Assembly (NCBI GenBank): GCA_018296565.1 | Contig: GCA_018296565.1_3935.1 | Length of the DNA: 64,000 nucleotides | DNA from: a phage | Reading direction: 5' to 3' (one strand) | In this document: piece by piece, positions 32,434 to 33,480 of the stretch | Layout of the letters: every line of letters starts with the position of its first letter | Position numbering within the stretch: position 1 is the first letter of the stretch | Notes under the pieces: model-generated | What the model saw: only the letters and a program-made list of their open reading frames with translations | Told to the model about the DNA's origin: nothing | Databases searched by the model: none | Position numbers and translations under genes: made by a program

Positions 32434-32874
32434 TTAGAAAGGTTTTCTACGTTGCTTGTTAATGTTAGCTTTCATAGCAGCTAAATGGTTTTGCTGTTCA
32501 ATCAGTCGTGAGCGTTCTTGATGGCTAAGTGCCATAGTGTTCACATTCTCAATCGCTTGAGTGGCTTGCTTTAAAGCTCGACCAATCTTACCAGACATTT
32601 TACGTTTTGCAATAGTTGCTTGATGCTTAGGTTCAACCACACGATAACCAACACCCATTGAAGCAACCAGATAAATCTTCTCTTCTTTAAGAAGCTTCTC
32701 AATAAACTTCTCAAGTCGGTTTAGACGTGTAAGCGCATAAGCCTTCATTTCATCTTCGTACTTAACAATGTCACCTTGATAAGTTGGCTTCACAATACCT
32801 AAGAAGGTATCCATCTCAGAGTGTGATACAGTGTCACCGTAACTAAACTTTGCTGCTAATGCTTTTGTATTCAT
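32434..32874 (-). CDS. Hypothetical protein (cassette gene 2)
   Basis: 146 aa ORF, ATG start, helical and basic C-terminus. Confidence 0.5.
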   Translation of the reverse strand: MNTKALAAKFSYGDTVSHSEMDTFLGIVKPTYQGDIVKYEDEMKAYALTRLNRLEKFIEKLLKEEKIYLVASMGVGYRVVEPKHQATIAKRKMSGKIGRALKQATQAIENVNTMALSHQERSRLIEQQNHLAAMKANINKQRRKPF

Positions 32875-32876
32875 AA

Positions 32877-33464
32877 TTAAACGTTACCTTCTGAAATAAC
32901 TTCTACAGAAAAACGACCAAAGCGTGGACGCCAATCACCTACACCACAAAGGTTACCAGCATTTTCCAGAACCATCAAGAGTTCCTCTTTGGTGATTTGC
33001 TCTTCATCGAACATCAAACCGAACTCTACAGACCAGTCACGGAAGATTGGACGGTAGCTCATAACTCGTGCTGTGCCAATCTTAACAGACTTAGCATAGA
33101 TAAAGTCTGGATTCTTAGCAAGTTCTTGTGGGTTTGCTGGACAGTTCTTGATAGTCATTGGGAAGACTACATCTGTCAGCATAATGGCTCGGTCAATTAC
33201 CTTACCAAGTTTGTTGAGTTTCGCACCAGACTTGATGCAAGCCTCAATCATCTCACCGTTCATAACAAAACCTAGCTGCTCATCGTAGTAACAAGAAGTT
33301 ACCAGTTGGCTTTCTGCTAAGAGCGCATAGTCTTCGTCGGTCTTTTTACGTTTACTGGACAGAGACTTGTGATATTTTGTCAGAGGGTTTAATGGGTCTG
33401 ACAGTGTATCAGCGTGGCTCAGGAAAGGACGAGTACCAGTGATTTTGATATTTAACAGTTTCAT
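32877..33464 (-). CDS. Hypothetical protein (cassette gene 1)
   Basis: Track ORF starts at a GTG at 33479; ATG at 33464 follows a ggagc RBS. No recognisable motif. Confidence 0.5.
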
Positions 33465-33480
33465 AGCATTTAGCTCCACA

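Follow-up and report, generated by a model that had tools for sequence, protein, structure and literature searches.

Viral Interference Programmable Repeat (VIPR) is a virus-encoded, RNA-guided DNA-binding system reported in preprints of 2026 (bioRxiv 10.64898/2026.04.26.720920; 10.64898/2026.04.26.720927; PDB 36pp). In those preprints, guide RNA expression, formation of a ribonucleoprotein, DNA binding, transcriptional silencing and enhancement by the accessory protein Vap1 have been shown for phage SUSP1, the evidence coming from small RNA sequencing, pull-down, cryo-electron microscopy (cryo-EM), and GFP and phage assays (bioRxiv 10.64898/2026.04.26.720920; 10.64898/2026.04.26.720927). The subject here is a 64,000-nucleotide (nt) stretch of phage DNA (NCBI GenBank assembly GCA_018296565.1, contig GCA_018296565.1_3935.1), termed the window, whose minus strand carries at 32066-33902 what can be regarded with high confidence as a type II VIPR system of the SUSP1 clade; three of its guides would address a satellite element of E. 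coli, and suppression of that parasite is its most likely role. The system itself is already known: an orthologue has been described and structurally solved in a sister phage, and the picture drawn by the preprints is unchanged. New here, as read from the DNA, are an array layout of two guide genes on each side of the protein genes, the set of guides, and a guide with a 6-nt unit that appears still to match its target in register.

In the published description, VIPR guide RNAs (vrRNAs) are approximately 100 nt long, consist of 9-16 YNNGG units with an invariable pseudoknot tail, and are encoded in the intergenic flanks of the vipr gene (bioRxiv 10.64898/2026.04.26.720920; 10.64898/2026.04.26.720927). 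Under the published code, the two bases of each NN pair with the target, and a single target base is passed over before the next dinucleotide (bioRxiv 10.64898/2026.04.26.720920; 10.64898/2026.04.26.720927). Most of the assignable guides of the SUSP1 clade (18/20) match a satellite that shares tape-measure and baseplate-hub genes with its helper phage, and no self-targets were reported for the published VIPR guides (bioRxiv 10.64898/2026.04.26.720920; 10.64898/2026.04.26.720927).

Vipr and Vap1

At the center of the locus are two minus-strand open reading frames (ORFs), present just as an initial annotation made from the letters of the DNA alone had described them:

32877-33464, minus strand: vipr, encoding a 195-amino-acid (aa) RAMP protein with a single RNA recognition motif (RRM), assigned from its sequence, a PDB match and an AlphaFold2 (AF2) model
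32434-32874, minus strand: vap1, encoding the 146-aa VIPR accessory protein, assigned by identity to SUSP1 Vap1

Vipr is identical to SUSP1 Vipr at 192/195 aa (98.5%), and the single solved structure matched by the profile of its family is PDB entry 36pp, "SUSP1 Vipr protein" (E 7.8e-80). The ATG at 33464, which yields 195 aa and has a GGAG approximately 9 nt upstream, is most likely the start codon; it is preferred over the GTG at 33479, to which the mechanical ORF list extends, because it agrees with the annotated and crystallized SUSP1 protein. The family comprises proteins of approximately 190 aa from phages and prophages of Proteobacteria and Actinobacteria (520 clusters were returned), and its invariant motifs include a glycine-rich loop. 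The cryo-EM preprint identifies residues that contact G1, G2 and Y3 of the repeat, the skipped base and the non-target strand (bioRxiv 10.64898/2026.04.26.720920; 10.64898/2026.04.26.720927). H17, K33, R39, E71, M72, K82, G87, K88, R138, C173, D177, W178 and R179 are all present in Vipr; the exception among the contact positions is T175 of the paper, which is V both here and in the SUSP1 sequence.

The fold of Vipr was examined with an AF2 model built from an alignment made for this work (predicted local distance difference test, pLDDT, 95.6). In a Foldseek search with this model, the best 45 PDB matches were all type III (Csm, Cmr) or type VII CRISPR effector complexes or their subunits, with standalone Csm3 structures among them (E down to 5e-5, probability 1.00). 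Chains of Csm and type VII effector complexes gave template modeling scores of 0.45-0.53, and standalone Csm3 gave approximately 0.4-0.5. The copy of the PDB used predates the VIPR depositions, which makes this an independent test of the fold, and the outcome agrees with the claim of the preprint that Vipr is a RAMP. By analogy with its SUSP1 orthologue, Vipr is thus taken to be a RAMP protein that would polymerize on vrRNA with one protomer per repeat.

The vap1 gene begins 2 nt past the vipr stop codon. Its product matches SUSP1 Vap1 at 145/146 aa and occupies the same genomic position. An exhaustive search returned 234 cluster representatives of the Vap1 family at E<=1e-3, approximately 150-170 aa in length, across which a hairpin, GxGY-x-V/I-x-P-x-EQ, is conserved. 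In the AF2 model (pLDDT 95.8), long helices follow a small alpha/beta domain that includes a beta-hairpin. In SUSP1, Vap1 enhanced VIPR-mediated phage restriction and was predicted to bind DNA (bioRxiv 10.64898/2026.04.26.720920; 10.64898/2026.04.26.720927). Winged-helix DNA-binding proteins (ScpB, histone H1, SaeR, MarR, ArsR) are overrepresented among the weak top Foldseek matches of the model; these matches are compatible with that prediction and no test of it.

The initial annotation had recognized no motif in either protein, and this was a fair reading: Pfam, NCBIfam and PADLOC hold no significant match for Vipr or Vap1, and the PHROGs matches of the locus proteins are to families of unknown function only. 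The remote-homology and structure searches that it had recommended for both proteins settled the case of Vipr, through PDB 36pp and the RAMP fold, but not that of Vap1, for which neither a profile search of PDB sequences nor Foldseek gave a significant match.

Guide RNA genes on both sides of vipr and vap1

Four tracts of period-5 NNNGG repeats lie on the minus strand, at 33716-33800, 33573-33643, 32308-32367 and 32146-32235. They score 7-10 of 10 consecutive units, compared with a maximum of 6 in 20 shuffles of the window, and no further NNNGG tract was found on either strand of the 64 kb. Likewise, a repeat search of 31900-34000 returned only the period-5 tracts plus their leader and tail copies. 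Two C/A-rich repeat blocks had been noted here at the outset; such repeats are real and far beyond chance, but they make up four tracts, with one pair of tracts on either flank of the two genes. On the coding strand, these C/A-rich repeats read as four predicted vrRNA genes, U1 and U2 upstream of vipr and vap1 and D1 and D2 downstream:

33811-33824, minus strand: leader box AGAGGGTTTTTAAG, preceding vrRNA-U1
33684-33800, minus strand: vrRNA-U1, 17 YNNGG units (33800-33716), several with TG or AG for GG, plus a 32-nt tail
33715-33684, minus strand: vrRNA-U1 tail, pseudoknot GTAG TT AGTCT CAG CTAC ATTAAAATG AGACT
33541-33662, minus strand: vrRNA-U2, leader box (33662-33649) and two sets of seven YNNGG units set apart by an extra G (33643-33573)
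33572-33541, minus strand: vrRNA-U2 tail, pseudoknot GTGG AT GGTAG TAG CCAC ATTAAAAAT CTACC
32276-32386, minus strand: vrRNA-D1, leader box (32386-32373) and 12 YNNGG units (32367-32308)
32307-32276, minus strand: vrRNA-D1 tail, pseudoknot GTAG TT AATCG GAG CTAC ATTAAAATT CGATT
32114-32254, minus strand: vrRNA-D2, leader box (32254-32241) and 18 YNNGG units (32235-32146)
32145-32114, minus strand: vrRNA-D2 tail, pseudoknot AAGG AT GGCAG TAG CCTT ATAAAAAAT CTGCC

All four tails are 32 nt long and share one pseudoknot architecture, S1(4)-L1(2)-S2(5)-L2(3)-S1'(4)-L3(9)-S2'(5), with 9/9 pairs formed. Over the window, three related phages and the satellites, five stem versions occur among six distinct tail sequences, and both stems show compensatory changes, for example GTGG:CCAC versus AAGG:CCTT, and GGTAG:CTACC versus GGCAG:CTGCC, AGTCT:AGACT and AATCG:CGATT. 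These changes support the predicted pseudoknot within the limits of a small sample of paralogous copies and no formal covariation test. A leader box resembling AGRGGGTYTTTTAA precedes each of the four tracts; 8 matches to it occur in the window, where 2.6 are expected, and 4 of these stand immediately upstream of the tracts.

Among relatives, the GGY scaffold is kept and the NN dinucleotides vary. Conservation of the gene pair in relatives devoid of the repeats, which the initial annotation had named as evidence against its reading of the locus, was not found; the repeats are kept, and it is their variable positions that change. This phage and phage ASO1B have the same U1, and their other three guides are entirely different. 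That U1 alone is common to both suggests that guides are exchanged or replaced singly, one unit at a time.

Predicted guide targets in an E. coli satellite

The satellite was located by BLAST with the SUSP1 baseplate-hub gene and was found in 474-501 of 5,426 complete E. coli genomes (~9%). It is an island of approximately 10-12 kb that encodes a large serine recombinase, often a small one too, together with tape-measure, baseplate and small unknown genes; its tape-measure and baseplate-hub genes are related to those of the phage itself. Some copies also carry a replication-initiator-like helix-turn-helix gene, and many a DNA methyltransferase. Fifteen satellite loci were scanned with the guides, namely eleven diverse copies and four (L015-L018) obtained with guide-derived BLAST queries. 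Applied to published SUSP1 guides, the gapped scan reproduced their reported behavior, with 21/24, 27/30 and 20/22 matched bases when one base was skipped and at most 17-20 with other skips. For the guides of the window, it gave the following:

vrRNA-U1: units 8-16, 18/18 NN bases, in the satellite tape-measure gene at site TTAGCTGAAGCACCAAAACCAGCAAAC
vrRNA-U2: all units 24/28 (86%), units 3-14 22/24, in a 96-aa satellite gene directly downstream of the initiator-like gene
vrRNA-D2: units 4-17, 27/28 NN bases, at the junction of two small hypothetical satellite genes
vrRNA-D1: no target above background

The local scores of the three positive guides are 18, 18 and 25, compared with a maximum of 14-16 in 100 shuffles of the order of the guide units. 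Skips of 0, 2 and 3 bases reach at most 13, and contiguous pairing in particular (concatenated NN dinucleotides, skip 0) gives background scores only. In the cases checked, the skipped base coincides with the wobble position of a codon, as the preprint describes. The key matches are already present in loci chosen by baseplate homology alone (L005, L009, L010). Site frequencies were determined with hybrid queries, in which the dinucleotides of a guide were combined with skip bases borrowed from a natural site; among the 5,426 genomes, target sites were found in 129 for D2, 82 for U2 and 136 for U1. All sites listed lie in tape-measure or hypothetical genes, and those that were fetched or cross-checked are all in satellites. 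Several strains hold two of the three target sites within one satellite. CT02, HN68, GmM077 and YZ22MPE6 are examples of strains with the satellite; a U2 site is found in YZ22MPE6 and a D2 site in GmM077.

The initial annotation had taken the locus for a self-contained conflict cassette for host takeover or anti-defense, with proteins acting on host proteins or defenses and with the repeats as insulators. It is true that the genes are co-stranded with replication and nucleotide-metabolism genes, have their own terminator, occur in part of the relatives only and find no match in Pfam, NCBIfam or PADLOC. But the SUSP1 orthologue, from which Vipr scarcely differs, was solved together with guide RNA and DNA; Vipr has a CRISPR RAMP fold; and insulators would have no reason to match satellite genes, as three of the tracts do, under the published gapped code only. 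Moreover, Pfam, PHROGs, PDB sequences and Foldseek gave no match to a known anti-defense or host-shutoff protein, no dedicated anti-defense library having been searched. What survives of the earlier proposal is a self-contained accessory cassette that is flanked by repeats, takes part in genetic conflict and is patchy among relatives; its role is better described as anti-satellite RNA-guided repression, in which the tracts are guide RNA genes, their variable dinucleotides specify DNA targets, and the genes thought to be addressed belong to the satellite and not to host defense systems. A takeover or anti-defense function is scarcely credible on this evidence.

A VIPR system could also serve mainly in regulating genes of the phage itself or of its host, for example in the timing of expression, with the satellite matches being secondary. 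The position of the locus among replication genes and the nature of VIPR as a repressor rather than a nuclease would suit such a function, as would the lack of a satellite target for D1 and the unmatched half of U1. Self-matches within the window speak against it, the best match of a long guide reaching 64-75% of NN bases and none attaining the 80% threshold of the paper. In addition, no top guide match was found in the chromosomal DNA that flanks the satellites (more than half of 375 kb scanned). The preprint, too, is without self-targets and assigns 18/20 of the assignable clade guides to the satellite. Regulation of phage or host genes as the main role is therefore considered very unlikely, and the type II VIPR reading, with the satellite as the target, is retained.

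Several points weigh against that reading or limit it. First, D1 has no target above background, its best satellite match (18/24) not exceeding shuffles. Second, of the 17 units in U1, only 9 match the target, and in a BLAST search with a full-length hybrid query no E. coli genome extends this match. Third, D2 (18 units) and U1 (17 units) exceed the 9-16 range stated in the preprint. Fourth, L015-L018 were picked with queries built from the guides, so that the best scores are inflated. Fifth, no significant structural match in Foldseek supports a DNA-binding fold for Vap1. Finally, the evidence for this phage is at the level of sequence, expression and activity being known from SUSP1, and the mechanism is drawn from preprints that await peer review.

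For D1, an exact scan with its gapped pattern gave no match in viral contigs. The scans also covered species-representative genomes and metagenome contigs, where a 10-unit pattern matched exactly in two Lachnospiraceae metagenome-assembled genomes (L019 170-198, L020 105-133) and one metagenome contig (L021 2687-2715). These matches were dismissed as noise, their number being approximately that expected by chance for 20 specified bases. D1 may be directed at an element still to be sequenced or recognized. A candidate second site for U1, a 15/16 match of its 5ʹ half to a satellite "transposase" gene, was rejected as unproven: it is not significant after correction for sub-windows, its local score equals that of the best shuffle, and it is not wobble-phased.

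Irregular guides

The guides of the window depart from the published form in ways that bear on the strictness of the recognition code, namely through a bulged unit, partial-length matches and degenerate units. U2 matches its target in an unbroken 3-nt register around its 6-nt unit, with 8/8 bases before it and 13/14 after. This match in register on both sides of the extra G implies that a Vipr filament could absorb a bulged nucleotide. U1 (17 units, 9 matched) and D2 (18 units, 14 matched) may use part of their length only. In U1, the motif TAATGTGATG occurs in the leader and again after unit 4. Given this second, internal occurrence, possibly only the final 11 units act as the guide, in which case 18/22 bases (82%) would match the target. 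The internal motif also hints at two alternative 5ʹ ends or at a fused double guide. That these guides extend the published rules, with a 6-nt unit tolerated and/or over-long guides used in part, is offered tentatively and is rather doubtful as a general claim. Were either extension true, recognition would be less strict than the published code, and an individual vrRNA might be modular.

The same irregularities could mark a decaying or inactive VIPR remnant, in which intact proteins are left with degenerate, non-functional guides. Several units with TG or AG for GG, the 6-nt unit of U2, the over-long tracts and the internal leader-motif copy of U1 might all be read in this way. Yet both proteins are obviously constrained, at 98-99% identity across >100 phages, with the contact residues kept; all four pseudoknot tails are perfect; and three guides are near-perfect against extant targets, even across the 6-nt unit. 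Furthermore, internal degeneracy is frequent in working vrRNAs according to the preprint (bioRxiv 10.64898/2026.04.26.720920; 10.64898/2026.04.26.720927). A remnant is hardly plausible, and an intact type II VIPR system with somewhat irregular guides fits the locus better.

Proposed mechanism

By analogy with SUSP1, the four tracts would be transcribed into vrRNAs of approximately 90-120 nt, each a run of YNNGG units capped by a 3ʹ pseudoknot. Vipr would coat the vrRNA with one protomer per unit, burying GGY and presenting the two variable bases. The resulting filament would read double-stranded DNA in a gapped register of two paired bases and one skipped base, forming an R-loop that blocks transcription and leaves the DNA uncut. 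Vap1 would reinforce silencing, probably by binding DNA. When the phage infects hosts that carry the satellite, satellite genes would be silenced. Most likely, VIPR protects the phage in this way from a satellite parasite that would hijack virion parts, as is inferred both here and in the preprint.

Transcription signals around the locus

Three signals delimit the predicted transcription units:

33875-33902, minus strand: strong predicted sigma-70-type promoter TTGACA-16-TATACT, matching 11/12 consensus positions, directly after the DNA ligase stop codon
32397-32422, minus strand: intrinsic-terminator-like hairpin and T-run directly 3ʹ of vap1, with the stem at 32422-32407 (AGCCTCTTCGGAGGCT)
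32066-32113, minus strand: 19-nt inverted repeat and T-run that would close the downstream array D1-D2

An identical promoter sequence is found upstream of SUSP1 vrRNA1. In the window, the promoter at 33902-33875 probably drives U1, U2, vipr and vap1 as far as the terminator at 32422-32397. The initial annotation had placed a terminator 3ʹ of the cassette, and a consensus scan of 31500-34500 indeed finds this stem and T-run as the sole terminator-like site; the hairpin is conserved in SUSP1 and annotated as a terminator in phage ASO1B. The D1-D2 pair sits between the vap1 terminator and the second hairpin (32113-32067). The loop and 3ʹ arm of the 32066-32113 repeat hold the promoter TTGACA-17-TATTTT of the next gene (31638-32021), which encodes a 127-aa protein with a hydrophobic N-terminus resembling a signal peptide. 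Termination at the end of the array might in this way be coupled to transcription initiation at the following gene.

At 33847-33886 on the minus strand, the -10 hexamer upstream of U1 is overlapped by a further inverted repeat (GGTGAGTA...TACTCACC), conserved also in SUSP1, which may serve to bind a regulator or may belong to the ligase terminator. The leader boxes may be promoters or processing signals; the promoter reading was not adopted, the -10-like hexamers (TTTAAT, TTTAAG) being without the conserved A at position 2. The portions of the VIPR preprint text searched hold no discussion of how individual vrRNA ends are made, whether by internal promoters or by processing. Other roles considered for the repeats, as Rho-utilization sites of antisense transcripts, G-quadruplex tracts or wrapping sites for a TRAP-like ring, were dropped once the PDB search had identified Vipr.

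Diversity and guide RNAs of the satellite

Satellite copies are very diverse, at approximately 70-85% identity, and as many as 5 copies or fragments occur in some genomes. Integration occurs at four or more chromosomal sites, including yciI/tonB, the DUF72 gene between yecN and yecD, ymdF/wrbA, and lafU/dinB.

Satellite-encoded vrRNAs are mentioned in the VIPR preprint (bioRxiv 10.64898/2026.04.26.720920; 10.64898/2026.04.26.720927). Among the loci scanned here, some bear a vrRNA gene of their own (L007 6052-6116, L012 5528-5597 and L014 6245-6289, all on the minus strand), consisting of a YNNGG tract, a phage-type tail (GTGG AT TGTCG TAG CCAC GTTAAAAAT CGAC) and then a terminator. By tblastn, Vipr and Vap1 are encoded by 0/15 satellite loci, so satellites that bear vrRNAs would have to borrow the Vipr of the helper phage.

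The phage and its relatives

The 64-kb window belongs to a Felix O1-like coliphage (Ounavirinae). In all, 252 deposited phage genomes match the 2-kb region around the locus at approximately 90-99% identity, nearly all of them Felix O1-like myoviruses (Ounavirinae: Felixounavirus, Suspvirus) from Escherichia, Salmonella and Shigella. An array of 19 tRNA genes occupies the start of the window (2-4386, plus strand), as is typical of Felix O1-like phages, and an Rfam search of the window found tRNAs only. In annotated relatives, the gene pair is bordered on one side by the ATP-dependent DNA ligase gene and on the other by several small genes that precede those for DHFR and thymidylate synthase; the neighbors in the window correspondingly are ligase, small hypothetical genes, a regulator, DHFR and ThyA.

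A comparison of presence and absence across related phages had been proposed in the initial annotation. A tblastn search finds vipr in 130 phage records, of which 118 are Ounavirinae at >=92% identity. Set against the 252 records that share the surrounding DNA, these 118 suggest that the cassette is present in approximately half of Felix O1-like phages only. The other 12 records are distant (31-43% identical among those listed) and include Pseudomonas, Gordonia, Mycobacterium and Listonella phages. Among the phage records listed, vipr and vap1 are annotated as "hypothetical protein" or "Phage protein" or have no product name. Once the locus is recognized, two proteins listed as hypothetical and four intergenic repeats that bear no annotation become one functional unit, with vipr occurring in >100 phage genomes, and the map of which satellite genes the guides of this phage address describes a testable conflict.

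Comparison with known systems

The closest system is the type II VIPR of SUSP1, which has the same gene pair in the same position between the DNA ligase gene and the gene for the 127-aa protein. The promoter, leader boxes, terminator, YNNGG guides and pseudoknot tails are also the same, as is the E. coli satellite family that is targeted. However, the layout differs, with two guide genes upstream and two downstream here and one upstream and three downstream in SUSP1; phages ASO1B and fjerdesal share the 2+2 arrangement. All four guide sequences, and hence the target sites, also differ from those of SUSP1, and the present phage has 17- and 18-unit guides and one 6-nt unit.

The type II VIPR of a Pseudomonas fulva prophage has the same vipr, vap1 and vrRNA architecture, recognition code and R-loop triplex. 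It is distant in sequence, the nearest Vipr of a Pseudomonas phage in the phage collection being 43% identical, and its guides mainly target regulators of resident prophages and not a satellite.

Outside VIPR, the nearest relatives are the backbone proteins of class 1 CRISPR-Cas systems (Csm3/Cas7 of type III-A, Cas7 of type VII, and Cmr4). Like Vipr, they have an RRM core, a glycine-rich loop and a thumb, and they polymerize on guide RNA at a fixed number of nucleotides per subunit, with bases flipped at regular intervals. Unlike class 1 CRISPR-Cas, the VIPR locus is virus-encoded and has no CRISPR array, spacer acquisition genes or nuclease, and its guide is a tandem pentanucleotide repeat that pairs in a gapped manner (two bases paired, one skipped) rather than a contiguous spacer. 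CRISPR RAMP effectors have been proposed to descend from VIPR, which needs no more than one 20-kDa protein and one guide RNA of approximately 100 nt (bioRxiv 10.64898/2026.04.26.720920; 10.64898/2026.04.26.720927). In its effect, VIPR resembles dCas9 and CRISPRi, in which programmable RNA-guided DNA binding blocks transcription without cleavage. In contrast to dCas9, VIPR needs no protospacer adjacent motif, works on either strand, and relies on a polymer of a 20-kDa protein that recognizes its target non-contiguously.

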